The translations under genes and the position numbers were made by a program. Positions 1 through 54,867 of a DNA stretch of 64,000 nt are shown in pieces. This DNA comes from Psilocybe cubensis (lineage: Eukaryota). The number at the start of each line of letters is the position of its first letter. Position 1 is the stretch's first letter. The notes under the pieces were generated by a model that saw only the letters and a program-made list of their open reading frames with translations, searched no databases and was not told where the DNA came from. The DNA lies in the NCBI GenBank assembly GCA_017499595.2, contig CM039008.1, forward strand, positions 558,001 to 622,000, written 5' to 3'.

Positions 1-1165
1 GTCAACTTTTCAATGTCCTTGAAGCTTTTCATGCAGAAAATCTGCCTTGTAGCTCCTGGGTCGCGCAGCGTATATTTGAAATCCTTTGCTTAACTGCTTG
101 AACAATTAAAGGGGCCTTGACTATACCACCGCTTAGAATGATTTTAGCGCTACGGGAATGAACGAAGACAGTTCGCCAAAATCCATCTGTCCGGAGAATC
201 AAAATTTTATCAGAACAACCTATCGGCAAAGGCCATAAAGTCAAGATGAGCACTGTATTCTGCTCGGGTAGAATGAACGCTCACAATGAAATTCATGTCT
301 GGCGAAACACAAGAACGCCGTTCTGCGGCGCAAAGTGTAAGTATCTGTTTCGTGAAGTCCCGGTCTAAAGCTCCTCCACCACGACATTTGCTTCGTAACG
401 CTCCGGCGGGAAGCCCAGATTCAGATCCAAGCCAGTGCCACGTTATTGCAGAATTGTGTTACGAGAGTCAAAATCAGGTAGCCTTTCATCTGGATTCTGT
501 AATATACTTATGCTATGTGGTGGCATAAATCTGGATTATCTCCAGGCGCCATATTTGCGATACACCGAACGGCAATGCCACGTCTATTTAATTTACCTGG
601 GCCTTAAATGCTTATTCCAGTCCATTCTGCAGTCAAATAGTATGCCCTGCCTTAGTGTAAAGTAGTAGTTGAAAGGCGTTTTTCGTCAATCCGTTGGAAT
701 CTTGTTGAACGTTTTGCGTAAGTTGGAAAATGAAATTCGCATTTTCCCGGTCCATAGACACTAACTTGATAATCTTGATTTAACGACGTGGGATGCAAAT
801 TACTGCAGGATTTCTTCATAGACTAAATGGCAAACGGCAAAACTACGTCCAGCTACAACTAACGCAGAATTACAGTCGCTGCAAACTGCACCGTCGTTGA
901 TCAGATGTCTCTGTTCTTACAGAGTTGTACAGCGCAGAGTTCCTAACTTGATTGCGCTCGCAAATTTTTCTTCAAGAAAATTGGCACCAAGGATTTTCAG
1001 ACTTTCAAATATTTTATTTGACTTCACAGCTGTCAGGTCGATACTCCGCCAACTCAACGGGCTTTTAATCGTTACTAAGCATCTGTAACTATCACGAATA
1101 TGAAAGTCGAAACAGAGGTGGCAAAAACAATTATTGCGAACAAAATTAACCAGTCGCCGATAACC

Positions 1166-4100
1166 TCAGTTCCATTTGAGCGTCAAAGGCTGATTCAACG
1201 TCACATTAACCCCAAGTGCGACAAGCTTGGCCTGTTGAGGAGCATACGTCCACGACGACACGATTCGGTTATTCGCAGAAACAGACTTCGGCTTAGACCC
1301 GACGCCCAGAATGGTGATATCCTGCAATTTCGGTCCCACCTGGAACCCACCAGATCCACTGACAGTGAGCTCGTTTTTGGTCGCCTTGAACACGAGGTTT
1401 CGACTAGGTCCGGGTGGGTTGCTGATGCCGTCATCGAGGTAAGCACTGCCTTGTGCTAGACCTTGTGCATTGAGGGATACGAGGAGAGAGAACGGGCCTT
1501 GGCGAGTCTCCTCAATCGTGTACGCTGGTTGGGCGTGCAGAAGGATAACAGACCCACCGCGGATGTGGACGTTGATGTGGCCTAGCGGAGCAGAAAGTGT
1601 GGTTGGCTGACCAGGTGTAGTCTTGAGGACATCGTGGGTGTACCAATCGCGCCAGATCACCGATCCACGTCCGGGGAATACCCCTGCCATTATGAAATAC
1701 GTTCTCAACTCGGTTTGGAGGAAAACAAAAAGAAACATTATTACCTGATACTGTCGTAGCGTTGGGCAGTAAAACCGGAGTGACGAGGATGTCACCGCCA
1801 ACCAAGAACTGTGCGTCCACGCTGAAGAGCTCTGGCTCATCCGGGAACTCATAGAACAGCGCTCGCACCGGTGGCGTCCCGGTAGTAGACGAATTGGCAA
1901 AGAGAGTATACTGCAACCGGTCCATCGCACATCAATCTCACAAGTCAAAAACGAACGAAGAAATTTGACTTGCCCAGTAGGGAAGCAGAGAATACCGAAT
2001 GGCGATGGCGGTTCGCGAAGCATTTGCGACGCTGTCCCATCGATAGGGTTCTTGTGATATGGCTCCTTTAATGTTGTGATTACGGAAGAACGGGGTGAAG
2101 GCGGAGAGCTGCATCCAACGGTTGCACAACTCCTCATCGGTGTTCCCATCTGCGATCGAGGAAGAAATCGCCCAGTCAATAACTTCGGATGAAATGCGGT
2201 AGCAAAGAAGAGCCAAAAGCAAACGCACTAAAACCACACGTGTCTGCACCAACGAAGGGAATCTGGAACAACTGGAATTGGAGAACTCCCTATTTGGAAG
2301 CGGTGGGATTAATGCACGGGAATAACACGAGCCAGTTTGATTGTGGGCACTTACTGCGATGCTGTACCGGAGGTAGGACCACAGGCTGAAGTTATCACCC
2401 AACTTCGAAGCAAGAATCAGCAAGTGGAAACATTTGGAGTAAATGTTCTTGTGATAATCAAAACATACCCAGTGTCCTGTCCATTTTCCTGACGAAGGGA
2501 ACGTCGAGCGACTAATCAAGAACGGTCTTTTATTTGGAATGATAGATTGGACCGCAATGTTCGTGGCTTTTTCTTCCATCAATCCCCAAAGATTATGAAC
2601 ATCTAGCTCCACCTGCCCATCTACGTGTGTGGCATTGGTGGCCAGCGCATGGATAGATAAACGCCCGTTTCCTGGGGCGCGTCAACAAGTTTTCGTAAGT
2701 GACACGAAGATGATTGCCAGGGTATATAGCTCCATGGTATAACTCACCATTATGAATTGCATAGGGAGGCGTATTAAGATCGACATTTGTCTGCTTCCCC
2801 GCACCTAACCCACGCCTGCTCAAGCCAGAGAGCGCAACCGTCGCAGTATCCAAGTTACAGGTCAGTGTTCCATTGACAGTGATGTTTCCACTGGGACCAT
2901 GAACTGTAGAGTTATAACTTGATACATTGGTTTAAAAGTGAGATGCGATCAACCAGATAGATATTAATCGTTGCACATACCATTCCGGGTAGTCTACAAT
3001 AATAGACAGACCTTCAGAACATAGAAGTATGTCACGAATCTAAAAACAACTGACCCAATACCGGGTTGCCCGGTTCGCCCGGGAGGATGAAAGGAGGACT
3101 AGTGTTGCTGAGATCCGCACCAGTACCACTGCGAAATGAGGGTGAAAATTATCAGCGGGAAAGCACTACTGTCACTCTCAAAAATGTACCCTCACCAAGA
3201 CCCGTCACAGAACGAGCTAGCCTCATTCATATCGAGCCATATCCCGGAGAACTCGATCCCTAATTTGCTCCAGTTGCGGAACGATTCTGTCCACCAATCT
3301 TGGGTGTTTTTCTGGAACCAATCAGGGAACACCTTTTGGGCGCGGAGAGGTACGTCAAGACTTGAAATGATCCAACCAGAAAGGACGTCACAAACCGTAT
3401 ACCCCGGCCACACCTGCCCAACATACTCAGTGCCATCCGGGTTGGTGATAAAAACACCTCTAAGGGCAGCAGAGTCCACGATAAGTAACGGCGGGGAGTC
3501 GGGAATCAAAGACGCGGAGCATGTAAACGGAAGCTTACTTTTCAACTCCTTTTGTGTAGGGATCATACTAGAAATAGAAAACATGACCATAATCAGCTCC
3601 ACTACGCGAGTCAAACAAATCGCCAAAAGAAATAAGGGAACGTGAAGGATCACGTACAATATCGGTCGCATTGATCTGTTTCGGGATGGCCGCATCAACG
3701 ATAGGGATGTCTGGCGGGATTGATGGCGCCATCAGATTGCCATGTCAATGCGTAAAAATCAGATTTCCTTACAGTGCTGATTGTTTGCATTCTACGGGAA
3801 ACAGATTAAACGGGAAAGTTCAAGGACAAAGAAGTGCACAACACACCAATTCCCGAATGAACGTGCGCATTTCATCGGGAGGGAAGCTGACAGGGTCAGC
3901 GGTAAAATCACGAACGGCATGGTATAAATCGATGTCGTTCCACATAACTGAAAAAAGATATTAAGAAGGATGATTAACAGTGGATACAAATGACTCGGTG
4001 GGTCTGGAATGAAGGAGGCCCGAACAGACCTTCCAGCGGGATATTTGCAGCACGCATATTGGTCACTTGGCTTCGAACATCGGCAAGGTTTTCGTAACCC

Positions 4101-5556
4101 CAGCTGAAGAGATGTCTCAGTTGAAGACACACGTAAAAATTAATCCTGATTCCTCAACGTACCGGCAAAGATGGAAACCAAAGCCCCACACAGGTTGCCA
4201 AGATGGGAGACCCACTAAAGTCCCATATTGTTCGATAACTGACTTTGGGGTGGGTCCTGAAAGAAAGTAAAAGTCCAAAACGCCCCCGATCATCCTATAT
4301 TCAATTAGAGAAACATTGGATTGGGGTGGCGTCAAAAGCAATATGTCGCCACCAGCCGCACTTTAAAGACATTACTTGTCAATTCCACTAAATACCTGCT
4401 AGAAGTTTTTCGGTGACACACCTCAGCAAAAAAACGCCATGTGACTGAGATGTGTTTGTCTTTTCATCAAAACGATGCTCAAGATAAACTGGATGTGATC
4501 CATATCTGGATAAAACCATGAATCAATCGGTCAGTTCATTCCAAGCAAAAGATTTAAAGAAACGCCATCACGTGAGTAACGCGACGAAGAAAACGTACAT
4601 ATTTTCATCAACCGGGTCAGCAATATCTCGTGCCCACATAGTTTGGATTGTTCCACCATTGGGGCCCACATTTCTGCGGAATCCGGAGCTAGCAACAACT
4701 TCTCCCAGGCCGTAGATATTGGTGTTCAATGGAAGAGCGGACGATAGCTATTGGAAATGAAAACGTCGAAGGCTTTTTGAGTCAATGCAAGTTATATAGT
4801 AGGGAACTTCACACCTGAAGATATTGATCTTCAAAAACTAAAGGAAAGCCGTTAAGGGCGGTGGAGTTATCGTCGGGAATTACAGCAGGGATAGGGGTCT
4901 TAGGCAATGACGCAATCCTCGTGTCGAAGAGGGGCGCTGCATGTGGCTGCGAACGACGAGTGATCCAAAATGCAAAAGGAGAAGGTTGATGGTTAAACAC
5001 AAGGTCCGACGTTTTTTGGAATGATTTGGAGGGTGCTGGAGGCCTTTCGACCACCGATTCCGGAACTGTGAATTGCTTATTGGCGGTGTCGAAGATGTTG
5101 ACATGAAGACTTTAAGCAAAAAAGATTGTAGCATTGAAAGACGGAGATGGGCATAACACTGCTTACCGAGAGTTAGTTTCGTATGTGACTTGAATGGTGA
5201 GATCCGCAACATCTGTGCCAAATGCATTGCAAGCCTTTCCGTTCAAACCAAGTTTGGCTGTCAAGCCCGTGTTTGTCTGCTTTAGAGAATGGAGCTGGTA
5301 GCCTGTGATACATTGAATCAGAGAGTAATCATGTCTGACCAAGTAAACATCACTTACCGGGACAACTGGAGACATCAAGACTATGGGTAATGTTACTGGC
5401 ATCGGGACTTTCTTGTCGCAAAAAATGCAGGGGTTGCCTTTCAGCTTGTATTAGCAACGCGGGCAGCCAAGTTGCCCAGAGCAGCCAGCTATTAGTGCTG
5501 AGCATTGCGGGGAATAATGAGGAACTATTTAGCGTTGTCCAGTGGGGCAAAAGCAT
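1166..5556 (-). CDS. Secreted glycoside hydrolase family 31 (alpha-glucosidase-like), multi-exon
   Basis: Spliced ORF pieces carry GH31 motifs: GIWLDMNEASSF (nucleophile), GHW-LGDN (acid/base), RWMQLSAFTPFFRNHN and YRMIGGVLDFYF. The start is probably the second Met (5505, signal-like MLSTNSWLLWATWLPALLIQA). Ends TLKWN*. Confidence 0.93.
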
Positions 5557-6508
5557 GCTTTGTGGAGGTTTATATTAGTTTCATTATCACGATGTTCTCC
5601 ATGTCAGCTGTTCCTCACGTCACTGAGCACTAGGTAGGAAGCGTACTCGTGGAAAGCTTTTGCCTATATTTGCAGTGTATTCCGATCGATGACCGTATGT
5701 GCGCACACTGGGAATGGTGGGACCAGCGCGAGGTGTCGCAAGCTTCAACCTTCGAGAAACGGTGTGTATAAACAAAGTCAACGTGGATGGTGGTGATGAC
5801 TATCCATCGGCTCATGCTGAAAGATTTATAAGCGAAGGTTATATACATTAAGAGCCTAGGAAGACGCTATCGAAAAGAGAGGGCGAACCTGAGGTGTTAT
5901 TCACCATCGCAAATACTGATTTTCCAGTTACTCGCAACTGTAAGCGGTGCATGGAAACAAGCTGAAAGCACACACGCTCGCCACCTCTCCCACTTGCGAC
6001 TCTGGTGTCTTTGACCAGAGTGTGCCTTAAGTCCGTTCCCGGCGATAGCCTGTCCGCGAAGACGAGAAGCATGGCCTACTCGCTAAACAACACAACTTTG
6101 AAAGTTTCATGGGAATTTTGGCATTGAATAACCTCTTTAAGAGCGAGACGGTAATATCAGAGCAAGTCAAGATGGTGGTCGGCGTTCAAATACACGAAAT
6201 GTGCATATCAGCTGAGCAGAAGGTATAAAAATACTTCACAGAGGAATGAAGGCGATTTTGCCTCCAGAGGACCAGAAATTCAAACAATCAAATCAAATCA
6301 CGTGTGCGTGACAGCGTGACTTGCACGAACAGTCACTTCCACGCGATGCTCGTCCTCCGTTTCCGCTAATGCCACTTTTTTAAAGCACCAACGTTTAATA
6401 GCGGCTACGGAACGTCCAAGATATCTTGAGTTTGTCCAAGTTCGATTTTCTATTTGGATTTCACACCAAGCATTCCTTTTACTCTTATGAATAGGTTGCT
6501 TCAAATTC

Positions 6509-8605
6509 ATGACGACACCTAGTGGCCGAAGAACCAGAGCTTCCATCGACGCTGAACTTGAACTACTTGAAGCTCAGCTCCAGACCCTAATTTTACGGGA
6601 AAGCGACATTCAGAAAGTGATAGACCATGCCCAAAGAATGAAAGATGCACTCACTCTGGAGAGACTGTCCACCGAGAAACAGAAAGCTGAACTCGAGGCT
6701 CAAAAAGAGCCCATTAACTGGCTTCCGGTCGAACTGCTTATCCATATCTTCTCTGCATATGCCGTCCTCGGATATTCAACTGACAACCCCCATCCATCCG
6801 TTACTGTGTCCCATGTTTGCAGGAAGTGGCGAGATATTGTTCTCGATGCTCCTGATCTTTGGCGCCGGATTGTTCTGCGGGGATTCCAAAGAAGAGCACC
6901 CTTTCGAGTGTATTTGGAACGGTCAATGGACTCCCCTCTGGATATAGACTATACAACTATGCCGCGCATTTCTACATCTGAAGAACGCTACCAAGTCATG
7001 AAGTTAGCGGAAATATGCAACCCGCATTTCAGGCGCGTGGAAAGTCTATCTATTCAGGTGAAAAATGCCATAGCCTTCCTTCCGTTTATCTTGATTATCA
7101 AGGATCATGTCAAAATGCTCCCTCGACTACGCCATCTAAATGTTGCAATATCCGCGCAAGACCCATCGTTCCATGACATCTCTAGTCTCCTTGATGCCGA
7201 CCGAATTGCTCTCACAAATGACACAGTTTTCATTCCAAGCAGCAGCAATCTTCGCCGCCTAAAGATAGAAAAGATACCATTGTTCAATTTTCCTGCCTCA
7301 TTAATTGCAAATCTCGTATCCCTGGAGATCGTCTACTCTCCAAGGTCGACGACCAACCATTACTTTGTCAAGATGTCTTCTCTCTGTCGCTTCTTGACAC
7401 TCACCCCACGGCTAGAGGAGCTGGTTCTGGCTAACACTGTACCATATTTTGACGTGTACCCTTCTTCTGAGGCGCCCGACGTCTCAGCAAGGGAAAATAA
7501 GGAAGAAATGCAACCAGTGAATCTCCTCCATCTCAAATCGATCGACTGGACTTTTCCCTTCTGTGGAGACATTCATCGTCTTCTATCTTTGATCAATGCG
7601 CCAGGTCTGGAAAGACTCGATCTCTGGGTCAACGATCCTCCTAGGCGTCTCGACATAGACTACGTCCGAGGCTATACGTACACCTCATCTTCATACTCTC
7701 TGCGCAACACAGTCACGTATCCCTCACTCCGCGATCTTAGCGTGCAATACGCAGGAGAAGAGGCGTCCTCTCTTTCTTTGCGAAATTTCTCCTTCCCTGC
7801 CCTAGAAAAGCTGGCCTTTACCAACATTGACACCGCGGCTCGAAGACCCGGTGGATATATGCCATCCCTACCTGTATTTCCGCGCCTAGAATCCATATTT
7901 CGCGACCCCCGCCTTCCGAATCTGACGCACCTGACGCTATCGCACTTTGAAATCTGGACAGAAGTGGGTCGCGTCGAGGCAATGCTCGGATATATGCCGC
8001 TGCTCACTTCCCTTTCTCTCGATGCATGCCCTGGGACTTGCAAGCTCCTGAACGCCCTGCAAGAGCAGGTCGTTCCAGCTACTAACAGGGTCCAAAGCGC
8101 GCGGAGGGGAGCGGTGCGTGGCGTCAAGCTTTGCCCGAGGCTAGAGGCTCTGTCGTTCTGGGGGTGTCAAGACGTCGACTTTGCGACGCTCCTTGCGGTT
8201 GTTTACTCCCGGAACAGAAGCGCCAGTGGCTTCGCAGAAGAAACCACGCATAAAGACGAGTCTGCTACTCCGAATGGAGCAACACAGGCAATCGTCACGC
8301 GGGGACTGCGGGATGAGAATAATGGGGGCGCCAGTCATAGGACAGAGCCGGCCCAGATGGGAAGGAAGATTAAACCGTTGAGGAAGCTACGCCGCGATCC
8401 ACCCGAACTACCAGGGGCACCGTCGGCTGAAAATGTAGCAGCTGCAACACGGTCTATGGCCACAGTCATGATACATGCTGCACGCCGTCCAGCACAAATT
8501 ATCTATTTGCGCATGACGGACTGTAAGCTGATTAGTGAGGAAGAAGCCATACAATTTAAAAGCCTCGGTGTTGTAGATGTAATTTGGTCTGGGTCGGACC
8601 AGTGA
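6509..8605 (+). CDS. F-box protein with N-terminal coiled coil and LRR-like C-terminus, single exon
   Basis: 698-aa uninterrupted ORF. F-box-like INWLPVELLIHIF...VSHVCRKWRDIVLDAPDLW, followed by repeated LxxLxL segments (LPRLRHL, FPALEKL, CPRLEAL). Confidence 0.88.
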   Translation: MTTPSGRRTRASIDAELELLEAQLQTLILRESDIQKVIDHAQRMKDALTLERLSTEKQKAELEAQKEPINWLPVELLIHIFSAYAVLGYSTDNPHPSVTVSHVCRKWRDIVLDAPDLWRRIVLRGFQRRAPFRVYLERSMDSPLDIDYTTMPRISTSEERYQVMKLAEICNPHFRRVESLSIQVKNAIAFLPFILIIKDHVKMLPRLRHLNVAISAQDPSFHDISSLLDADRIALTNDTVFIPSSSNLRRLKIEKIPLFNFPASLIANLVSLEIVYSPRSTTNHYFVKMSSLCRFLTLTPRLEELVLANTVPYFDVYPSSEAPDVSARENKEEMQPVNLLHLKSIDWTFPFCGDIHRLLSLINAPGLERLDLWVNDPPRRLDIDYVRGYTYTSSSYSLRNTVTYPSLRDLSVQYAGEEASSLSLRNFSFPALEKLAFTNIDTAARRPGGYMPSLPVFPRLESIFRDPRLPNLTHLTLSHFEIWTEVGRVEAMLGYMPLLTSLSLDACPGTCKLLNALQEQVVPATNRVQSARRGAVRGVKLCPRLEALSFWGCQDVDFATLLAVVYSRNRSASGFAEETTHKDESATPNGATQAIVTRGLRDENNGGASHRTEPAQMGRKIKPLRKLRRDPPELPGAPSAENVAAATRSMATVMIHAARRPAQIIYLRMTDCKLISEEEAIQFKSLGVVDVIWSGSDQ

Positions 8606-41860: not shown

Positions 41861-43148
41861 AGGACCCTCGGCATTTAGCCCAAAGGACGTTCCGTCGGAC
41901 GGACAAAAATTTTGAAAATCGACCCCTTAGGACGTTCCAAAACCGGACAAAAATGACTGATTTTGAGCAAAATGTCGTTCCAGAATTCCGGACAGAAAAG
42001 TTGCAGGACCACCGAGGTCGATCCAAAAACCGGACATATATCATGATCAACGACCCTCAAAATATAAGTCATCGGTTAGTATAGAGGCTAAGCGTGTAGT
42101 CGCTCCCCGCCCTTTGTAATGTGATACTACGTTGTTGTTTCTAATCTCGATATCGCCTTTTTAGTATTTTGCCCTTAGTAAACCCATAGTTCAAGAAAAT
42201 TGGTATAACCGTAAGAATAACAACAAAATGTAATGAGATTTTACAAATTATGAATTTGGCTACTTTCGATCACCTAGCTACCTCTGTCGACCTAGCTACC
42301 TCTTTCAGCCTCTTTCCTTGCATTGTTTTCCATGGCTAACAATATAATTGACCTCAACGACAATCGCCCTTTTGTCGACTCAGACTGGATTTTGCAAGGC
42401 AAAAAATATCCTTCTCCAGCTCCAGCATTTATTGAAGATGCAAAAAAGGCACTGTTGACGGTTCCATCGCCCTTTCAAGAAGATATTCCCCCATCCAATC
42501 AGTGTCTCAATTCATTACTACTCAACTGCCAGAAATATCTGTGGAAATCATTTCAGTCAAGACAGCGGCATGGTTCAGCAGAGACGCACCAACCACAAAC
42601 CCTATCTGCCTTCGTACACGGCCTATACCCAACATTACATTTCTCCGCAACCTAGTGCAAGTTACTCACTCTCCTCCATCATAAACCCTTGCTTGTCACT
42701 CCAACAGGTTTTGAGGTCCATGCACAAGATATTTCCCTTTACAGAACACTGTTTGCCGGAGTAGGAAGCATAAAAAAGGCGATGAAAATGTTTGCAAAGC
42801 GAAATTTAGATATTATTACATAGATTTTCTGCATCACACATTCAATTGTAGTTATGTATTCCTACCATCAGCTTTTTTTCGATTACAGGCATCCACAAAA
42901 TGGTTCAGAAGTATCCTAATTGCTGCTGCGCGGGCGCAGCAGCGAAAAAATTGAATTTTGTGCCTGTCCGGACACGAATTGGGCCTCTGGAGGGTCGTTC
43001 CCAATTTCCGGACAAACTTCCGAAAAAATTGATAGGTCGTTCTATATCCGGACAAAAATTTTCAAAATCGCTGAAAATCGGGTCGGACAAAAATCCCAGA
43101 AATCGACTTTTTTTGGGAACGTCCTTTGGGCTAAATGCCGAGGGTCCT
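41861..43148. mobile_element. Non-autonomous TIR DNA transposon, 1288 bp, 8-bp TSD
   Basis: Perfect 33-bp TIRs AGGACCCTCGGCATTTAGCCCAAAGGACGTTCC. TSD GCGGAAGA at 41853-41860 and 43149-43156. Repeated subterminal CGGACA motifs. Frameshifted internal ORF fragment at ~42332-42660. Confidence 0.93.
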
Positions 43149-43299
43149 GCGGAAGAGAGTAAGTATGTAAGTACCATCCATCATGCATCAATGTTAATTA
43201 TCAAATCTTTGGGGCTCGCGCCGGCAAAAACGCCGTAGTTCGTACATGTAGCACCAGGAATTATCTAGGCTGCTTTGCAGTAGTTGGGTTGCGCCCCTC

Positions 43300-46200
43300 A
43301 TGGCAATGGATATTCTGACTTCCCCCACCTTCATCGCGTCTGCTTCGTTAGGAGCGCTCGCTGTGTATTATCTTGCTGGATCACAAAAGCGGGACTCGCG
43401 ACATCCTCCAGGCCCGCGGCGTCTCCCAGTGATAGGCAATGCACACCAAATGCCAGACAAAGATCCTTGGCTCGTATTTGGAGAATGGGGGAAGCGATAC
43501 GGTACGTGGTTGAGCATTGAAGCGTAAAAGAGCGTGTTCATCATTGGGCCCGATACTGGTGCTTGTGGGTTAAAAATTAAAAAAGAAAATAAAAAAAGAA
43601 AATACAAAAAAGGAAAGAGAAGGAGGGAAGGGAGGGAACGAATTCACCCTTCATTTCATACTACTAACATCGTTACTACACTGTTAGTATCTAACATATC
43701 AGTGGTTCGCATTGCTTCACGATTAGCCGGCTTGGTTCAACTCGGCTAAACTCTTGATTCTCGCTTAGATGAACAAAAATACACGAAAAATAAATCAAAC
43801 ATGGTAAGAGCCCCGAATACATTTCATGGAATCTGATGCTCGCTTACGATTTGACCTCGCATAGATAGCACTGTGCAACGGTTAGATGAAGGTGCGCACA
43901 TCTCCGACGCCAAGGCAAAGGACTTAGCTGGAAACTGCAACAATTCACAGCAGGGCACCAACAACGCCCACCCGCCGTTCCCGCCGTGATTCCCCAACCC
44001 ACACCAGCAACAACACCCAGAAAATCGAATTGAATACGCGTTGCCGACGCATCCACCATCCCCATGCTCATCAGCCGCGTCCCCCATCCATTCCCAGGCT
44101 CGTCAAAACTAAACACCGCGCTTCCCACTTCGAAGACGACGCGCTCGCGTCACGTTGGGGCTCTTGACGACTTGAACGTGCTTTGCCGACGCGTTCACCA
44201 CCCATTCCCGTCCTCGTCAAGGCTATCCACCGCGCTTCGTGCCTCGAAAACGATGTGCTCGGATGATGTTGAGGGTTCTTGGCAAGGTTAGTGTCACTGA
44301 CAGCCTCCATATGATGCTGTACTCACCATACCACACTCATACACACCCAGCAAGTCGTATCGAACACGTTTCAATGCCTCTCTACACCCCGCCTCCCAAA
44401 CTGGCCGTGCTCATCTTACAAAACATCGTCGCTGTGCTTCCCGCTACGAAAACGCCATGCCGGTGAGATTTCTTCTCAAGGTGAGTGACCCCGACAACCT
44501 CTTTAAATTTTAGTGCCATACTCACCAACATAACCAGCTCGTTCATGGCCAGCTAGGCACGATGAGCCTGAACACGCTGCGACAACGCGTCCTCTATCCC
44601 TTCCCGCAGATCCGCGTGTGGGGCTGTTGTCAAGGTTAGGGTCGTTGACAGCCTCTATCTCACCATACCCAACTCGTACGTCTCTGCACATGTACGTGTG
44701 TTCCACGTAGTGACGTGCTCGTCTCGCAGATGAACTCGTCGCTGCGCTTCCCGATTCAAAAACACCACGATTTCTTCTCAAGGTTAGTGACCCCATCGAA
44801 GTCTTTTTACTGGCACGCTGTGTTGATGCGTCCAAGTCTTCTATCCATCCCTGCACATCCAATTGTGTCCGCCACGAAATTAACACCCATGAAGTCACAT
44901 CCTTGAACAAAGCATTCCTGCACTTTCGCATGGTGTGTCCCTTGAAAACGATGCGCGTCAAGGTTAGTGATGGTGTTGACCACATTTGAAGAATGCTCAC
45001 CAAGAAAAACACGGACCCTCGCATCCAGACCCACTGACCGCATCATTCTCACGTTGACGGCCGGTGTGGTAAGTGCCGTCTCACACGAAAAGTGATTCTG
45101 GACACTTGGGCATGCTGATGCGTAAAACGCGCTCCTTGGGATGGGCAGATTGATGTTTGTGGTGTTCATGAGGGACACATAGCCTGCTGTGCAGGTGAGG
45201 GGTTGAGGGTGCTAATTGGGCGAAAAGGGAAGGATGATCGAAGACGCGGTAGCTAGAGGATCAACTCTGGTAATGTTTGAGGGTTTCTGAAACTTGTTCT
45301 AGATTACGGACAAATAATAAGGAGTACAGTAAGTGATTTATTAATTTTATAGCAAGTTGTAGTACTAATTTCAATGGTTTCTACTATTACATGAATGAAA
45401 TCCAGATGTCATGAGCATTTAGGTCAGTTTAGGCCATCGCTCCTCGGGAACATCTACCCATCCCACATAACAAGGCTTGTCAGGTCGCTTGGTGTACCGA
45501 CCTTTGCATTTGACATTTCCACAATCACGACAACGGTTGTGGCAATGCTTGACCCGTTGGCGACCCGAACATTGTGTGGAGCCGCATTTTGCACAGGTAC
45601 GAGGCCGTTTTCCCTTATCTAAAGCGTGCGATCGTTGAATCTGTTCACGCACACGTTTCTCAGACAGTGCTTCGCGATTTACACGATTGTGTACTGCAAG
45701 ATTTGTCGCGGTAGTAAAGGTTTTTCGAGTTGTTGAGTGGGGCAGCAAAAGGTCGGAATTTGCACTTTGCAACGGTGTCTGTTGGTCATCGTGTACAGGT
45801 GTGTCTTTGTTGTTACCATGCACCTCTGAACGATTTGTATTAAAGGTTCCAACAGAAACGGACGTTGGAAGAAGTCCGTCATCGACACTCAGTGGTTTCA
45901 GAGTTTTCTCTGGTACACGGGGTGCCGTTACTGAGCGAGATGGGTTGCTAAGGATTGCTGCCAATGGTTTCCGAATGTCATATGTTGTAAAAAGAGACTC
46001 TTTAACATTGAGGTTTGTTTTCCAATGTGCATAGTACGATTTTAATTGTTCAATTAACTGCAGTAAATGAATATTAGGATACTAGTCATGTTTAAGCTAT
46101 TTTGTGCTTACCTTGTATGATATCTCTGAATTGATATCAGCGTAGTGATTCCAGACCTTCACGGCCTTTTTCCAGATTGGGCCGGATGTCAGAGAGTTGT

Positions 46201-49200
46201 AGTCGGGATTGGCTTGCATAAGATCTCGGAAAAGCTGCTTTTCAATGTCGTTATGAATCGGAAGAATGGGCTTTCGTGTGTGTTGCATTTGAGCTAGAAA
46301 AGCATGACGTTGCTTTTTGTCAATGCTAGGAATAAATTCAGACATCCCAGTTGCAATGCGAATGCTGGTTGGAATCGGAAGAATGCCTAACGTTTCGGTG
46401 GTAGGAATGTATAGGTTTCCGTTAACCCATCCAGTAATTTCCACGGGATTTATTAGAACATCGTGAAGAAATGACAATCGCTCCTGAATGCTGTTGGTTA
46501 ACCAGATTGAGAAATGGCTGCGATACTTTTGTCCAGTGCTATTGAATGTTCCAACCTAACAAAACAGTTTAATATGATAGAGTAAGTAACAGTAGATATG
46601 GTCTTTCTTACCACAAGGTTGTGGTGCAGAGTGAAATCAGCAAGGCATGAGTAAACATGTTGCACTGATGCACCCGACGATGGAAGATGTGATCTAAGAT
46701 GAGTATGTACTCCACCCTCTGTCATGTTTGTTCCACGAAAACATCGATAGATAGTGAGACTTGGTGCTGCACTATCAATCCCTATTGCCGCATAGAGAGG
46801 AATTCCGGGTGGATCAGATATAAAACCGCGTCGTGTCAAATCAAGAATATGGCCCGAGGTCTTCCAATCATTAAAGTTAAACAAAGGAGCACCTGTTGTA
46901 GCATCTTTGAGGGGGCCAAAAGTTTCAAAAACCTTCTTTAGCAATCCATGCAGTATGTCAGCTGGTGGAATGATTCGTTTACATCGTTTCCATAACCAGC
47001 GTGGACGAAGCTTTTGGATTTGCTCAAAAGTCAATGGTGGTGTTTGCATTGCGCCCCATGCACTAATTTTGGCACGGTCTTCACCGTCAGGAATAAATAT
47101 TGCATCCCGAAGCTGTCGGGCAAACTCTGCACGTAAACCATGTGTTGAGGAGATATGAAACATGTTGAAAACATGGAAAACGTCTTTGAGGACCCGGCTC
47201 CGAATTGTACTGTCCCAGGTATTTGGATACTGGTCCAGTACTTGTTGGCCTAACGATGCACTTTCTGGGTCAATATTGCGAGGATGGTCTGTGGTTATAG
47301 GAGGTGCACTAGTAGGCCGATGATTTTCAACAACAAGATTTCCGATTGAAGGAATTGAATCATCATCAAAAGTTGCATCAAGTGAGAGGTCGTTATCATC
47401 CAACTCTGCCAAGCTGGCAGTCAATAGATCCTGATTGGATGACTGATCTAGAGACATAGGGCTTGTTTGAGCTCTAGAAGACGAGTCCGACTGACTTGAA
47501 TGATGTGTCCAAAATGTTGGCGAAAAGGTCTTTAAATGACTTCGTAAACAGACAAGAGTAAATGGTGGTGTCCCAAATGATGCAAGTGAACAGTTCCGAT
47601 GACTGCTGATTAGTGCACCAGGGACAAATACTTCTTCAATGTCGACAGCAGTTCTTGTAGTAGTAATATTGATGCCATCGAGTTGCCTATCATCTTTGTG
47701 GGATGAAATTTTTCCTCGAGCAATCACAGATGCCTTGTCGGTGTTGAATAAGAGAACAGGAATGCCTGCATTAAATTGAGAAGGAAGAACTTGCGGTGTT
47801 TCAAGAGTCGAAAGTTTGTTGTAAATGCATATACAAGCATATGCATCACAGGCTGCATAGGCGAGTTGATCGCGAGTAAGGATTTCATTTTCCCAAGCAC
47901 TGCTAATGCGCTCGGGAACGTTTTTGTTTAATCGTTTTCCCAAAACCAATGCACATAGATCAGCCAAACTGCATCGTGCGGAAGATATTACCATTTTGTC
48001 TTTTGCATATTTGGCAAGGTCAAGAGCGCCAACAAAAGGTTTGGGTGACTGGGAAGCAGTTTGAAGATGCTTTAAATCGGCTTCAACAAGCCGTCCAGCT
48101 TTCACAATATTTGGATTTTCCAATAAAATCCTAAGCTGACTTGGAAGTGTACCGCCTGCTAACATATCACCAATCTAATCAGAATTTTATTAGTTTACAT
48201 TTAATCATTGGTTTAAGTAGCTTATACATTACCTGAAGAATGTATATGGATGATTTATATGCTATTTGAATAATAGCTGTTTGTCCTCGATGCAGAATAT
48301 GGCCATTAGATGATACTTCAACATTCCACTCGGAATCAAACCCTATCACGATTTTTTTGTCAGGATGACTTGGATCAAGATCATCAAGAATAGAGGCCAT
48401 GGCAGCGTCTATGGCAGACGCTGTGCTTTTTACAAAAATAGCAATAGGCGGTGTCGGTACGGCAAGTGGTTCAAGATCTGGATACTTTTCAACTGGTACC
48501 ACAGACTCTCGAAGAGACGGCCAGGCATCTTCAAGGAATGCCTTGTCACTGGCAACGTTATCTGTAAATGCAAGCTTGGGTTCGGAATGACCATACATCT
48601 TGAGTGAGTGAAGCATTTGCTTGAGTGCGAGCTGGTATTGAGAATGTGACTTTGTTGCAACAAGGCTACATGACCGGATCTCGCCCCTTTCATTGGTGAC
48701 CGTAAGCAATCCCGTAAATATTTCTTCGCCATTGACCTTGGCAATATGCTTTGTGATCTGATTACAAAAATAAAGTTAGTAAAGAGTTATAGTAGTGATA
48801 ATAGACAACTACCACCTTGTGGCTATGATCGAGTGCACAAATTTCTGCACTAAGCATAGACATATGCTGGTTGAAATCATGGATATGCTCCATAATGAAT
48901 CGGTCGTACATGTTCCGGATCCATTGTGCGCTTGGTGTAAATCCATGCCTGCCATGAGGACTGATATCATCAAAACGTGGAAATGACATATACTTTTCTT
49001 CCCGCCATTTGTCCAGTTTACGGCCAGCTAATTGGTTCAAATACTGAAGATGAAGCTCATCATACTTCAGCAAATGATGCACTCGAATTGTGTCCGATAT
49101 TTGCTTTGCACCCAAACCGTTCTGGAACGACGACCTTACATACTGAAAAAGCCGTTTGGATATCGCACTACGATGACTAAGAATGGCGGGGAATTCAGCA

Positions 49201-52200
49201 GCCAAATCTTGTGGAAGTGCCGAGAGAATGCGGCTATCCCAGCTATTAAAGGTCACAGTGTGCTTTCCAGACTTTGGATGAGTGCAGACACTGCAACGAT
49301 AGCGATATCCAATAAGATAGAATTCGGAATCAATATCAATGCATCGGCGAGGATATGATATATTTGCGTGACGTTGTAGTGTTGACTTGCAAATTGGACA
49401 GGGAATGCGTTTGAATAATGCTTGAGGGTCCCACAAATAAAAGCGGATATCCCACAGCTCATGGGGAGACGGTTTGTTGCGTTGAAGAATGAAATATATT
49501 GCTGGTCTAGGAAACCAAAATGAACAGTTTTTGGAATACAAGGGGGGAAGGCCATGCTTGTCTCGTTTTTCGGGCGCAGATTCCAAAACTTTGGCTTCGA
49601 AAGCCTCGAGAAGCCAAACAGGACGCGCATGACGGATGCGCCTACCTGTATTTTCTTGGTACTCACTGTCCTCAACATTCTCATCAACTGGATCCAGCTC
49701 ATCACCCTTTTCATCCTGATTCTCCTCAAACCCAACATCTACACCAATTCCCTCGCCCGACATTCCAGTTTCTTCATCTTCGTCCTGGTCTTCATCGGCT
49801 AGTTCAACCGGTCTCTGGGGATCTTCATCCGGAATAATTTCAATTGTTGACAACGATGTGGGTTCGGAGACATTTGGTAGCACAGGATTTTGAGCGAAAA
49901 GAGGGTTGGGGAGTGTTTGGCGAGTTGATGGGTCCACCGATACGAGAGGTGATCCACCGGACAAATTTGGCATTGAATTTCCTCGATGAAGAGGAAAAGG
50001 AAGTCCCGATGGCGGGCGTGAAGGCTGAAAAGTGCCTGGAATGGTCTATGACAATGGTAAACCATGTTAGTTGTAAACAAGTAGATAAAATTAATAAGAC
50101 TCACCACACGGCCGAATTCTATTGAAATCTGAGGCTTACTTTTCCGTGGCCGCCCAACAGCTTTCTTTACAACAGGTGTTTGTTGTGCTTTTGTGCCAGA
50201 ACCTTTCGGCCTGCCTACGGGGCGGCGATGAGCAGAAGAATCTGTGTCTTCTCCCACTGCTCTGGATTTACTCTTGCTTCCCAGCGGTCGCCCACGCTTT
50301 CGAGGACGTGAAATCAAGTCCACGGGATATGGGGTAGCTGATCCGGACTCGTGGAAATGCGCAGGTGTCGTTACATTGAATAACGTATGAACTAAACAAC
50401 CAAAATAAGCCGCCGAGACTTCAACATCAACAAGGGTTACACATACCTTCTTTTTCCCTCGGTTGACTGGGCATGGGAACGTCAAATGTACGTTCGGAGA
50501 CATGCGACAATCTAAGAGACCTCAAGTCAGCATACTTTGTACAATGTGAGTGATGCAATTTGTGGCTCACAATGGGCCGCCTAGTCTCGTTGATTGCTGT
50601 GGATACGAAGATTCCAAATCCATTGTTGTTGGATGCCAATCCATGATAATTCACAGTACGTGAGGGGAGATGAGGGACAGCAAAAGGTAAACAGCGGTAA
50701 GAATACGGCGCAAGCAAGGTACAGAGGAGTGCTGAGACGGCCGCGCGACTCGAGTAGACGCAGACGCGACGTGAATGAGACGGGATGAGATATTTCCCAG
50801 TCATGTGAATAATTACATAATATTCTCAGCATCAGTATCCAGCATCAGCCACAGGCATGGATAGCGAGCCCATCATTGAGTGAAATTCAGGCAATATCAT
50901 TCACGTCGACGTTTTCGGGCAGTCATTGATCATCATCAATTCCACAAAGGTGGCCAAAGACCTGCTTGATAAGCGCTCGTCTATTTACTCCGATCGACCC
51001 CACTTTGTGAGTTTCTCAACTTTCTTCCCAATTGCTCGTATTGCTTAAACTCAACAACATCGTTTCTTCAAGACATTTGCGGGAGATCTGTAAGCCTATC
51101 CCCCCATTACCATCCTAATGAATATGATGAAAGTGACTATTGGCATGCCTTCAGAGTTCACTACGACGAAACATTTGTTCTCCAGCCATATGGCGAGAAT
51201 TGGAGAAAACAGCGCCGTATGGTCGCTAATGATTTTTCGCAGAGCATGGTCCCCCGTTATTTCAGCCTGCAGGACAAAGAATCGGCGAGGCTAGTGCGAA
51301 ACTTGATCAAAGACCCCAGCAAGTTCATATCTGAGGTCAATCTGTGCGTACACACCCTTTCCTTTATTTAATTTGGATTATTGTCGATATTTTGTCTGAT
51401 GTTTTGAAACCACTAGGCGAATAGGAATCATCATCCTCAGAGTGACGTACGGGTATTACGTTGAGTCTGCCGACGACCCATTTTTGACAACACCGCTGTT
51501 GGCGATGGCGAATTTTGGGAAAGCAACGCAGCCCGGAAATTTCTTGGTCGATTTCGTGCCTGCTTGTACGTCGTGATCATTCCACAAGGTGGACAGAGGG
51601 AGCGGAATTTAACAATGGAATCTGCAGTGAAGCACATACCTCGATGGATGCCGGGAGCGGGTTTTCTGAAGACTGCTGAAGAAATGCATAAAGTGATGTG
51701 GTCAGCAACATGGAACAATTACGAGTGGTGTAAAAACAACTTGGTATGGTCCTGACGAAAGCTGGTAGTGACGACTTGTTACAATGCTAAAACGAGGAGC
51801 AGAAAACAGGAAAGACGTTAATGCCAAATCTTTGTGGTACATTTATCCAGGAAGCAGGGGAAAATATCACGGAGGATGACGAGTTGAAACTTGGTTGGGC
51901 TGCGTCAAGTGTCATGGGAGGAGGTCTTGATACAGTAGGCCTTCGCCTTCTTCTTGCTAAGTTGCGACATATGAGGATTGTGTTTGACAGAATGTATCCT
52001 CGGTTATGACGTTCTGGGCTGCTATGATTCTGAACCCCCAAATCCAAGCAAAGGCGCAGGCAGAACTTGATAGTGTTGTCGGAAAGGATAGATTACCCAC
52101 CATATCAGATAGGCCACGATTGCCGTATATCAGGAGCATAATGGCGGAGGTGTTTCGTATGGGTCCTTCTATACCTCTAGGTCAGTTTATCACCTGTGCC

Positions 52201-52773
52201 GTTTTTGCTAACGCTGACAAAGTCCACCCTCCAGGAATACCCCATGCAGTTAGTGAAGATGATGTTTATGAAGGATATCATATACCCAAGGGCGCCTTTA
52301 TCTTGCCCAACGTTTGGTGTGTACAAACTTGGTCCAACGTAGTCACTCATTGACACTCGATGCCAAAGGCACATGTTGCACGACCCAGAAGTCTATCCAG
52401 ACCCGATGGAGTTCAAACCCGAGAGATTCAATGGTAGCGAATCAGAGATGAAGAAGGCGACAGACCTCGTCTTTGGATTCGGCAGACGAGTTTGTCCAGG
52501 AATGCATTTTGCGGAAGGCACACTCTTTGCAATTATTGCAACTACTCTCGCGACCTGCCATATTCTGCCTGGACTCGATGAACATGGGAAGGAAGTGTTG
52601 CCCAAGTTTGCGTACACCCCGGGGACAATTACGTATGTTGCTTTCTTGCATTAGATTTGTAACTTCTCCTGATATGGGTTGATAGTTTCCTGGAGCCATT
52701 TCCTATGAGGCTAAAGGCGCGCTCTCCGGATGCCATTTCTTTGTTAGAAAATGTCCCTTCGGATGTTGAGTAA
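43300..52773 (+). CDS. Cytochrome P450 (fungal CYP64-clan-like), intron 1 interrupted by a 7.3-kb transposon
   Basis: Exon 1 (43300-43501) has a TM anchor and PPGP hinge. Exon 2 from 50891 continues in frame (YG|NIIHVDVFGQ...LLDKRSSIYSDRP). GGGLDT, EVFR, PERF and heme motif FGFGRRVCPG are present. Stop at 52771-52773. Confidence 0.9.
44076..45030 (+). repeat. Degenerate tandem modules in the non-coding arm of the transposon
   Basis: CAAGGT(T/G)AG(T/G) recurs at 44283, 44477, 44631, 44779 and 44959. Similar blocks at 44076-44146/44191-44261 and 44424-44492/44735-44793. Confidence 0.65.
45419..50503 (-). CDS. ~1599-aa transposase: AT-hooks, DUF6729-like Zn domain, DDE core with nested DEDDy 3'-5' exonuclease, C-terminal Cys cluster
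   Basis: Six exons (50503-50105, 50045-48816, 48757-48233, 48174-46612, 46555-46112, 46057-45419) joined by five phase-0 GT-AG introns of 54-59 nt, with no stops. Motifs: GRP x3, CPIC..YRYRC, ALDHSHK, FTDN, GFDSEW, EADL, YAACDA, KDVFH, RGTNMTEG and CAKC...CRDC. Exact start uncertain. Confidence 0.88.
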
Positions 52774-52980
52774 GGCAGCGGTGGCCATGATAGGCTGGCT
52801 TGAGATAGATTTACGAGGTAATATAAAAGGTAGAAGTATTCAGGCAAATAGGGCGTACACCACGAGTTTGGGAAAGAATACTCTTCTGAACAACAATTAA
52901 GATACATACATACAGTTGGTGATACATCGGCCATGCCATAGCCATATAGACACCCGTAATGGAGTCTACTTGACAATAGA

Positions 52981-53118
52981 AACAACACCCCGAGCTTCAA
53001 AAGAAAACCAGTTGAATTATTGTTCAGCGTGCAGGACGAAAACACATACAACAACACCCCGAGCTTCAAAAGAAAACCAGTTGAATTATTGTTCAGCGTG
53101 CAGGACGAAAACACATAC
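52981..53118. repeat. Perfect 2 x 69-bp tandem duplication
   Basis: AACAACACCCCGAGC...GAAAACACATAC repeated exactly at 52981-53049 and 53050-53118. Confidence 0.95.
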
Positions 53119-53255
53119 CTGACAAGGAGTCTTTTGCAATGCTTGTACTCTGTCGCGAACTTAGTATGCTTGTAGATATATAAAAACGTTTGAACTTTTC
53201 AAAGCTTACCAGCCCTTTTATGATCTCATAAACGCTTGTAACATCACGGGTAAAA

Positions 53256-53326
53256 TGGAACACGCGGGAATTGCACCACGCGCAACCGTTGGACTAATCT
53301 GTCCCATTAACCTATGCCATGTTACT
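53256..53326 (-). other. Degenerate tRNA-like / Pol III-type sequence (pseudo-tRNA or SINE head)
   Basis: Box A-like TGGCATAG and box B-like GGTGCAATTCC at tRNA spacing, T-arm hairpin, partial acceptor (AACA/TGTT) and D stems, followed by TTTT. The anticodon arm does not pair. Confidence 0.35.
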
Positions 53327-53480
53327 TCCTGACCACCCGTCACTCTGGGACCCTAACCCAGGCCGGCCATGGTTAGTCGTGAACGTTGAACGGTGACCGA
53401 ACCGTCACATATACCCACTCGCCAACAAAAAGCCGGTGAACGCTTTCAAGTTTTAAATCTTCGATGCTGAATACTATCAG

Positions 53481-54867
53481 TATGAAAAAATTGTCCAGCC
53501 GCTTGATGGCCATAGCATCACTGGCGAGTACATCCCTGCTCTTCATGGATTTGGTGGAAACGTTCAGGCAAGTCTCCCGGAACTGAGCTTCCCCATCGAC
53601 GCTCGCGTCCTGGCTACGCTCAACCAGCCGTCTTCGGAGTTCCAGTACAACAACGACACGGTGGGCGGGGACCAAATTGTGCTCGGTGTGGGCTATGTCC
53701 AGAACAGCTCCAGGGAGGGGACGCGCAGCAGCGCCTACACCGGATACTACCTCGCTGCGGCCGCGAGGCAGAACTTCGTCATTCTAACTTCGGCGACCGT
53801 TTTGAAGCTCGTTCAGACTGGAACGACCGCAAATGGGCTCAAGTCGTTTCGGAGCGTACAGTACGCCCATGGGACTTTGACATGTGAGGCATGATAACCC
53901 GTATTCCAACGTAAGGATGGGGCATGCTAATACAGGTGTTTAGTGACAGTGACTGCGACTCGAGAAGTCATTCTTTCCGCAGGGGCTATCAACACGCCGC
54001 AGATCCTCCAGCTCTCTGGAATCGGAAATGCAGTTGACTTGCGAAAACTGAACATAACCGTTTTAATCAACAATCCAGCAGTGGGGAGCAACCTTTATGA
54101 CCACACACTCCTTCCCAACATCTTCGTTGTCCAAGATGCAGTGGCCAACCAGACATTTGACGATTTATTGCGAAACCAGGCCCAGATAGAAGATCAAGTT
54201 AATCTCTGGATCGCTAATAGAACTGGCCTTTTTATCAATAATATTGTAAACCACTTTGGCTTTTCCTGGATTATGTTGGACCCAGGGGAAGAAGACCCTG
54301 CACCGGGTCCCAACTCGCCCCACTACGAGATGATTTTTGCTGTGCGTTGACGGTATATAGTATTTTTTGATGCTCAAGTGGCACTAACACGCATCAACCC
54401 ACAGAATCTTTTTTTCGAAAAGCCTGGGCCCTTTAGACCAGACGAAGGCAGCTATTTTACGGTTGGAACTATGCTAACTAGCCCAGAGTCCAGTGAGTAT
54501 CACTCTGATTCCTGTGAACCATAGTTTTTAATTATTGGCATGTCGCCTTTTCATAGCTGGGACCGTTAAACTTGCCAGTGAAGATCCATTGGCCCCGCCG
54601 ATCATCGACCCCAGATACCTCACTGAGGTGTTTGACATTATAGCAATGCGAGAGTCCGTCAAAGCCGTATTGCGCTTTACAGCGGCGCCTGCATGGAGCG
54701 ACTGGATCGCCGGGCGCTTCGGCGCTGCATTCCAAAATGCCACGGACGACGCGTCGATCGACGCCTACGTTCGCACTCTCACAATATCTGACATGAACCT
54801 CGTCGGCACTGCGTCCATGTCGATGGTCGATGACCCCTCCGGCGTTGTTGGCCCCGACTTGCTGGTA
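53481..54867 (+). pseudogene. Truncated GMC oxidoreductase (aryl-alcohol oxidase-like) fragment
   Basis: GTRSSAYTGY, REVILSAGAINTPQILQLSGIG, VGSNLYDH, PPIIDPRYL. No N-terminal GxGxxG exons found upstream. Similarity stops after GVVGPDLLV. The catalytic His position reads DMNLVGT. Confidence 0.8.

Follow-up and report, generated by a model that had tools for sequence, protein, structure and literature searches.

A Psilocybe cubensis transposon with a predicted WRN-type exonuclease inside its probable Dada-type transposase

A transposon within a P450 intron

We characterized a transposon of Psilocybe cubensis that lies in a 64,000-nucleotide stretch of contig CM039008.1 (GenBank assembly GCA_017499595.2, positions 558,001–622,000 of the forward strand; hereafter the window, whose own numbering is used for all coordinates). 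The element sits in the first intron of a cytochrome P450 gene, is flanked by 8-bp target-site duplications and encodes on its minus strand a single protein of 1601 amino acids, in which a putative 3′–5′ exonuclease of the WRN type is inserted into the core of a DDE transposase that is probably of the Dada type. Its limits are as follows.

43547..50870 (−): whole transposon, 7324 bp; contigs end exactly at both limits, and the element is absent from one allele in runs X3/X4
43539..43546: left target-site duplication, 8 bp, CATCATTG
50871..50878: right target-site duplication, 8 bp, CATCATTG
43547..43571: terminal inverted repeat on the gene's 3′ side, GGCCCGATACTGGTGCTTGTGGGTT; 16/25 positions match the other end and 24/25 match an end of the metagenome element L007
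50846..50870: terminal inverted repeat on the gene's 5′ side, reverse complement GGCTCGCTATCCATGCCTGTGGCTG

Four public sequencing runs were compared with positions 42000–54000 of the window: X1 and X2, from one study, and X3 and X4, which are DNA from two samples of another. X1 and X2 are taken as RNA by guess, and spliced joints alone were used from them; they leave 42000–43600 and most of 50822–52425 (the P450 gene) uncovered and are uninformative there. Contig depths were not used for copy number. One X3/X4 contig runs straight from 43538 into 50871 and represents an empty allele; 8 letters at this joint fit either side. Other X3/X4 contigs stop exactly at 43547 and 50870. The insertion is a presence/absence polymorphism. 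Together with CATCATTG on both flanks, these contig limits and the joint define a 7324-bp element with an 8-bp duplication. The ends are imperfect inverted repeats of about 25 bp (5′-GGC...GCC-3′), and a random 25-mer of the window reaches as good a match as theirs (16/25) at a rate of 1.2e-4. No further copy of the element was found within the window.

Gene model and splicing

The gene model was built from stop-to-stop reading frames and spliced contigs.

45419..50623 (−): transposase gene, eight exons, 1601 amino acids, stop included in the last exon
50571–50623, 50447–50511, 50105–50391, 48816–50045, 48233–48757, 46612–48174, 46112–46555 and 45419–46057 (−): the eight exons in order of transcription

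A sequence-only reading of this DNA had proposed the motif order D, D, ExoI, ExoII, ExoIII, DxxH, E, and all seven motifs were found on the minus strand in that order: frame 48762–50045 ends with ALDHSHK, frame 48179–48775 contains FTDN and GFDSEW, and frame 46498–48174 contains EADL, YAACDA, KDVFH and TNMTEG. The three AT-hooks (frame 49799–50521) and the N- and C-terminal cysteine clusters (the latter in frame 45419–46081) that it described were likewise located in minus-strand frames. A single exon contains both the second D and ExoI, and a further one contains ExoII, ExoIII, DxxH and E, so that the nesting follows from the DNA itself, whatever is assumed about splicing.

The same reading had put forward a protein of 1599 amino acids with five phase-0 introns. 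Excising five GT..AG introns (54–59 nt, all phase 0) does yield a stop-free frame of that length from an ATG at 50503, with ALDHSHK at residue 537, FTDN at 607, GFDSEW at 682, EADL at 749, YAACDA at 824, KDVFH at 1048 and TNMTEG at 1200, and with the AT-hook cores RGRP, GRPKG and GRPRK at 70, 97 and 117. The five introns thus stand, but the N-terminus had to be corrected: two more 5′ introns (50392–50446 and 50512–50570) are spliced out in X1/X2 contigs, moving the start to an ATG at 50623. The model that starts at 50503 reads through the 55-nt intron 50392–50446; removing this intron disrupts the 1599-residue frame, yet it is a real intron in the 1601-residue frame. The public P. cubensis protein P0001 has 1601 residues, is 100% identical over the large exon, starts at the same ATG (50623) and differs from the 1599-residue model in its N-terminus alone, such that all catalytic motifs are unaffected.

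Of the seven introns, six are backed by spliced contigs, five of these through joints or pieces. The intron-free joints listed for X1/X2 and absent from X3/X4 are 46057/46112, 46553/46610, 50045/50105, 50391/50447 and 50511/50571, and a 17-letter loose end at 48759 in X1/X2 fits the sixth intron, 48758–48815. The seventh, 48175–48232, was accepted because the alignment to WRN runs unbroken across it. The element is probably intact, transcribed and recently mobile in P. cubensis.

Around the transposase stop, one X2 contig (45328–45473) skips 144 letters while retaining 15 in between, with boundaries that are not canonical splice sites; it could come from a variant copy or reflect an alternative 3′ end.

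Two predicted active sites in one protein

The protein carries the following features (residues are those of P0001).

50141..50308 (−): three AT-hooks, residues ~68–123; GRP cores retained in the family consensus
48900..49532 (−): DUF6729 region, which contains the N-terminal zinc finger (C351, C354, C386, C389); Pfam E value 1.3e-18
48828..48830 (−): predicted catalytic D541 (first D, D1, in ALDHSHK); on strand β1 of the model; 57/60 relatives
48560..48562 (−): predicted catalytic D611 (second D, D2, in FTDN); just past strand β4; 57/60 relatives
47800..48478 (−): inserted WRN-type DEDDy 3′–5′ exonuclease domain (predicted), residues ~639–845, with D686, E688, D753, Y826 and D830; interrupted by intron 48175–48232
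47491..47793 (−): small β-barrel domain after the exonuclease, residues 848–948; conserved in the family
46690..47193 (−): DxxH (D1051, H1054; 60/60 relatives), α-helical insertion domain and helix with the predicted catalytic E1206 (56/60), placed by secondary structure and the match to ISCth4
45470..45595 (−): C-terminal Cys/His cluster, C1544 to C1585; alignment of the family is poor here

Pfam gives only two families above cut-off in the 1601 residues, DUF6729 (E value 1.3e-18, 67.9 bits against a cut-off of 27) and PF01612 (DNA_pol_A_exo1; 2.6e-15, 57.1 bits against 23.6), and no helicase domain. A sequence match to the mouse and human WRN exonuclease domain (2e6l; E value 9.4e-16, residues 659–849) spans the full length of the exonuclease and aligns DxE, D and YxxxD, bearing out the earlier assignment to the WRN/RNase D DEDDy type. 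ExoI DxE, ExoII D and ExoIII YxxxD, which mark DEDDy enzymes on a DnaQ-like fold, are all present, and both the Exo and the domain matches are, at the level of sequence, far beyond chance. We predict that the inserted domain has 3′–5′ exonuclease activity, which is metal-dependent in the DEDDy class. Around D2, a match to the Pfam MULE family remains below its cut-off (14.3–16.8 bits against 27.6; E value 0.0096 with the exon alone and 0.058 with the whole protein).

Predicted structure

An AlphaFold2 model of P0001 residues 296–1425, computed with an alignment of 60 relatives as input, reached a mean predicted local distance difference test score (pLDDT) of 83.8 and a predicted template modelling score (pTM) of 0.66. 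It places D541 on β1, D611 past β4 and E1206 on a helix, the canonical positions of an RNase H fold. The insert, which comes after the D2 helices and before the last core strand, comprises the exonuclease (model residues 344–550), the β-barrel (model ~560–645) and a disordered linker. DxxH comes after the last core strand and opens an α-helical insertion domain (model strand 753–755, D756/H759, helices 773–873).

With the whole model as query, Foldseek returned the WRN exonuclease (E value 1e-11, template modelling score 0.87), and all of the top matches listed were exonuclease-type domains. VIA-align also retrieved the WRN exonuclease (Z 26.4, root-mean-square deviation (r.m.s.d.) 1.8, 185 residues, model 344–550), followed for this domain by the Nibbler/Mut-7 EXO domains and RNase D (Z 18.0–18.4). 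At rank 24 stood the IS256-family transposase ISCth4 (6xg8_A; Z 12.5, r.m.s.d. 6.3, 346 of 401 residues, model 31..955), aligned on both sides of the insert; prototype foamy virus (PFV) integrase gave Z 9.5 (model 238..986). The proposal of an RNase H-fold core with an inserted DnaQ domain is thus borne out by the model, in which a WRN-like domain is embedded in an ISCth4-like fold. Apart from this insert, the modelled fold is closest to that of ISCth4. Folded alone, the β-barrel reached a pLDDT of 93 and found generic matches only (Tudor, KOW and SH3-like barrels, best Z 6.4). A family profile searched against PDB sequences retrieved exonucleases only and no transposase.

Family and conservation

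With the large exon as query, we found 113 long fungal proteins, mostly from Agaricomycetes and several per genome, with members as distant as Tulasnella, Rhodosporidiobolus and Parasitella. The same query matched 1981 representatives at E ≤ 0.001, of which 351 reach E ≤ 1e-30; it includes half of the exonuclease domain, so that some of the weaker matches are perhaps plain exonucleases. P. cubensis itself has at least four members (P0001, P0010, P0014 and P0057), and the homologues found in Laccaria bicolor are P0248 and P0257. DUF6729 clusters are commonest in chordates, which we regard as a lead only, and a literature search found the term 'DUF6729' in no paper.

Conservation was assessed in 60 chosen relatives, mostly with both Pfam domains. 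All ten catalytic residues are kept in 48 of them, the five exonuclease residues in 54 and the D, D, D, H, E set in 51; the zinc-finger residues C351, C354, C386 and C389 are kept in 57, 57, 59 and 44.

P0001 is publicly named 'Werner syndrome ATP-dependent helicase-like protein', and the name 'essential for the formation of DNA replication focal centers' occurs among its relatives. The helicase name is wrong, because the protein has no helicase domain; both names were carried over from the exonuclease domain alone.

Comparison with known systems

The sequence-only reading had pointed to a nested exonuclease in a Laccaria Dada transposase, and this precedent is real. As defined by Kojima and Jurka (2013; PMC3706591), the transposases of the Dada superfamily are DDE enzymes with DxxH and two zinc fingers, CCCC at the N-terminus and CCHC at the C-terminus. 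For Dada elements of Laccaria bicolor and Ectocarpus, these authors reported an exonuclease of the DEDDy, DnaQ-like type located after the second D and before DxxH, and they suggested that it 'likely' processes cleaved 3′ ends. Their hallmarks for the superfamily are a 6–7 bp duplication, the lack of terminal inverted repeats (short subterminal ones only) and insertion into small-RNA genes; apparent 8-bp repeats are given for Dada-U1 and Dada-tIA, and no termini, duplication or target are given for the exonuclease-bearing elements. A survey of fungi counted 1,023 Dada copies that have a transposase domain, in four phyla, and nowhere uses the word 'exonuclease' (Muszewska et al. 2017, PMC5751038). 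The two-nuclease architecture is therefore already published and the family is widespread in fungi. As that reading had also supposed, our literature searches found no biochemical characterization of such a protein.

The window element shares with Dada-1_LB, Dada-2_LB and Dada-1_ES a DxxH-bearing DDE core, a CCCC finger and an exonuclease between D2 and DxxH, and is of similar size (7.3 kb, against 7.8 and 5.7 kb); its C-terminal Cys/His cluster is a candidate counterpart of their C-terminal finger. ISCth4 TnpA (6xg8) resembles it in that C/DxxH opens an α-helical insertion domain, and in 8-bp duplications and junction spacers of 6–8 bp. No sequence similarity to ISCth4 was found when the family profile was compared with the PDB, however, and ISCth4 has only ~400 residues, without exonuclease, β-barrel, AT-hooks or zinc fingers. 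The likeness to the WRN exonuclease (2e6l, 2fbt) extends to the fold and the DEDDy residues, with 29–36% identity in structural alignments and an E value of 1.3e-31 with the family profile. In WRN, the exonuclease precedes a RecQ helicase, whereas in the Psilocybe protein it is a loop insertion in a transposase core and no helicase is present.

Mutator-like elements (MULE/MuDR) belong to the same DxxH signature group, and the sub-threshold Pfam match around D2 is to their MULE family; their duplications usually measure 9–11 bp. Additional enzymes also occur elsewhere in the C/DxxH group: in the available text of PMC9587614, KolobokD, KolobokE and KolobokH, of another superfamily, are described with a DEDDh exonuclease, a lambda-exonuclease-like nuclease and a RecQ helicase among them. 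The exonuclease of KolobokD is DEDDh rather than DEDDy, and in KolobokE and KolobokH the same text places the accessory enzyme downstream of the transposase domain.

Related elements in metagenomes

A metagenome scan yielded 52 related loci (numbered with the prefix L), including near-identical elements at different sites (L005 and L038, 99.7% over 5643 bp; L033 and L035, 99.3%). Element ends were sought in two ways. Among the 31 loci with enough flank, requiring GGC...GCC ends and an exact 8-bp repeat gave 8 elements (0.42 expected by chance) with ends matching at 14–22 of 25 positions. When ends were instead located by similarity alone in all 52 loci, with no duplication assumed, nine end pairs were found, and six of these had an exact flanking repeat, always of 8 bp; no such repeat flanks the pairs of L018 (where the left side is a junction) and L041, or a third pair that arises from a spurious extra left end in L042. 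Counting the window element and the eight metagenome elements, an 8-bp duplication is present at 9/9 insertions. All nine duplicated sequences differ (68% A+T). In each of the nine elements the two ends match one another at 14–22 of 25 positions, and the consensus of the ends is GGCTcGnTAcnggTGTtTGTGG. Neither a tRNA nor an Rfam family was found in the eight loci, and no tRNA in the nine rebuilt empty sites; the same searches of the window found neither. The window element shows no target sequence preference.

In L041, an element at 2026–7855 has both consensus ends, but its flanks do not repeat one another; recombination between two copies or a one-ended event may have produced it.

Head-to-tail junctions

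In six of the 52 metagenome loci, a right end is followed head to tail by a spacer and a left end. The spacer has 6 bp in L006, L018, L032, L043 and L048, and 8 bp in L017. P. cubensis DNA run X4 contains a comparable junction, in which the right end at 50870 is followed by AGT and then by position 43543, giving a 7-bp spacer, AGTATTG. This spacer differs from the local flank (ATCATTG) at two of seven positions, the last four letters alone being shared, and the junction therefore did not arise at the window locus; it probably derives from another copy or a free form. The L032 contig (1–6085) has a 123-bp terminal direct overlap, such that a unit of 5962 bp wraps across the 6-bp end-to-end spacer, indicating a circle or a tandem array; L032 is a divergent relative (37% identity) whose transposase frame has no introns. 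Introns in L006 and L018 identify these as genomic DNA. The L018 spacer, AATATC, equals letters 2–7 of the flank beyond the right end of the same copy.

Discussion

We regard the element as a member of a fungal branch of the Dada-type (DUF6729) DDE transposases that encodes one 1601-residue two-nuclease protein, with a probability of about 0.8. From its N-terminus, the protein carries AT-hooks, the CCCC/DUF6729 region, an RNase H-like core with the predicted catalytic residues D541, D611 and E1206, DxxH with its insertion domain, and a Cys/His cluster. In the model, a two-domain module (WRN-type exonuclease and β-barrel) interrupts the core after the D2 helix and ahead of its last strand. The DDE triad with DxxH, the N-terminal CCCC finger and the position of the exonuclease between D2 and DxxH all agree with the published definition of Dada. 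In the mechanism that we envisage, the DDE site would cut and join the element ends, and the exonuclease would trim 3′ ends formed during the reaction (donor flank, transposon end or junction spacer), a role that Kojima and Jurka proposed. We favour such 3′-end trimming within the transposition complex.

Several observations weigh against this assignment. The duplication has 8 bp rather than 6–7 bp (6–7 bp not being strictly excluded for the single locus), the ends bear 25-bp imperfect terminal inverted repeats where Dada elements have none, and the insertions are in a P450 intron and unrelated targets instead of small-RNA genes. As small-RNA targeting is not seen here, Dada target specificity is not a property of this fungal branch. 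The placement in Dada draws on architecture and published descriptions, the named Dada transposases having been compared by description only, and three sequence searches, one by profile, reached fungal proteins only and not the animal Dada proteins that have no exonuclease. Among the 60 relatives, Laccaria P0248 and Amanita P0247 retain DxxH but have lost most of the exonuclease residues; the exonuclease may therefore be dispensable, or these may be dead copies. Both active sites are predictions from sequence and model, and the arrangement of D541, D611 and E1206 was judged from secondary-structure positions. Intron 48175–48232 is absent among the joints listed for X1/X2, and the empty site, which could be the ancestral allele, shows insertion and not excision.

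Other explanations of the protein fare worse. The inserted domain might act on RNA, as a Mut-7/Nibbler-like trimmer of small RNAs that blunts RNA silencing by the host, and the next-best fold matches are indeed the Nibbler/Mut-7 EXO domains and RNase D, with a Mut-7 homologue (7jw6) also detected by sequence (E value 5.3e-05). WRN, a DNA exonuclease, is nevertheless clearly the better match (E value 9.4e-16 against 5.3e-05; Z 26.4 against ~18), the position of the domain within the catalytic core, beside a DNA-handling insertion domain, argues for action in the transposition complex, and other transposons of the DxxH group carry DNA nucleases (PMC9587614, in its available text), making a role on RNA improbable. 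That the gene serves the host, in DNA repair as the Werner name would suggest or as a domesticated, immobile transposase, is consistent with its being transcribed and spliced. We consider this very improbable: there is no helicase domain in the 1601 residues, the gene is part of a 7324-bp unit that has inverted-repeat ends, is flanked by an 8-bp duplication and is missing from an allele in the same runs, near-identical copies occupy different sites in metagenomes, and each genome has many divergent paralogues. Nothing was found in favour of an artefact of the gene model, in which exonuclease and transposase would be two adjacent genes, and this is hardly credible. The idea is contradicted by the sequence, given that D2 and ExoI share one uninterrupted frame, that ExoII, ExoIII, DxxH and E share another, and that annotated proteins from dozens of species show this order too; continuous exons exclude separate genes, and the N-terminal exons alone needed correction.

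A different question is how a two-nuclease transposase of this kind would move. One possibility, which we advance tentatively, is a copy-out/paste-in pathway like that of IS256, in place of cut-and-paste. The two ends would first be brought together across a spacer of 6–8 bp, either in a circular molecule or in a tandem dimer, and this junction would then integrate with an 8-bp duplication; the exonuclease would serve in this pathway, perhaps by acting on the spacer or on the nick in the donor. ISCth4, the best transposase match by fold, makes 8-bp duplications and end-to-end junctions with spacers of 6–8 bp, 6 bp being optimal (PMC7780238, available text). The constant 8-bp duplications, the recurrent junctions in six metagenome loci and X4 with spacers of 6–8 bp, the overlap in L032, the intron-bearing L006 and L018 and the recurrence of the L018 spacer in the flank are in keeping with such a pathway. 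So are the published data on zebrafish Dada-U1 (PMC3706591), in which the duplication seems to measure 8 bp and tandem copies are separated by 6 bp.

The same data leave considerable room for doubt. Eukaryotic relatives with the DxxH motif are cut-and-paste elements, and circular by-products can also arise in cut-and-paste transposition. In contigs, a free circle and a chromosomal tandem pair look the same, the X4 junction was not formed at the window locus, and fold similarity does not fix a pathway. The pathway is proven for ISCth4 and only hinted at in the Psilocybe element; a figure-eight form or a replication step was not seen. The bacterial IS256 pathway might have a eukaryotic counterpart in the fungal family, and perhaps in all Dada elements, with the nested exonuclease and β-barrel as a eukaryotic addition that would process the donor nick or the junction, but we hold this to be less likely than not. 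Were it true, the published '6-bp duplication' of zebrafish Dada-U1 would be a junction spacer, and, as far as literature searches show, a eukaryotic DDE transposon would for the first time have evidence for copy-out/paste-in; our search for eukaryotic copy-out reports returned a speculation for KolobokP only.

Whichever pathway applies, the ends, the 8-bp duplication and the lack of small-RNA targeting supply the element-level data that the 2013 description did not give for exonuclease-bearing Dada elements. With its intact frame, spliced transcripts, exact ends, filled and empty alleles and culturable fungal host, this copy is suited to tests of the role of the exonuclease, and the ISCth4-like fold with recurrent 6–8 bp spacer junctions offers a testable hint of a bacterial-style circle or tandem-junction pathway in eukaryotes.

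Other features of the window

Two further transcribed features adjoin or overlap the element.

43300..43501 (+): cytochrome P450 exon 1; exon 2 starts at 50891
43774..45247 (+): second transcript within the element, spliced and convergent to that of the transposase; five GT..AG introns from run joints

Intron 1 of the P450 gene measures 57 nt in the rebuilt empty allele and 7389 nt with the insertion. The rebuilt allele encodes a normal P450 N-terminus with PPGP, and PF00067 is matched downstream of the element (51988–52353, E value 2.6e-18). The second transcript is made of degenerate exon-plus-intron repeats of ~150–190 bp, whose units are mutually out of frame; it offers neither a convincing reading frame nor a Pfam match, and may be non-coding or a decayed passenger. 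The related elements (5.6–6.6 kb) have no room for it.

Just upstream of the P450 gene, a 1288-bp unit (41861–43148) is bounded by perfect 33-bp inverted repeats (AGGACCCTCGGCATTTAGCCCAAAGGACGTTCC) that are unrelated to the ends of the Dada-like element. It is covered by many overlapping contigs in the DNA runs, with internal-deletion joints in X4 (42041 to 42746 and 42198 to 42770), and looks like a multi-copy non-autonomous transposon. On the other side of the element, positions 52981–53118 hold a perfect 69-bp tandem duplication, which is single-copy in one X4 contig (joint 52980 to 53050) and across which X1 and X2 are spliced (52994 to 53119).

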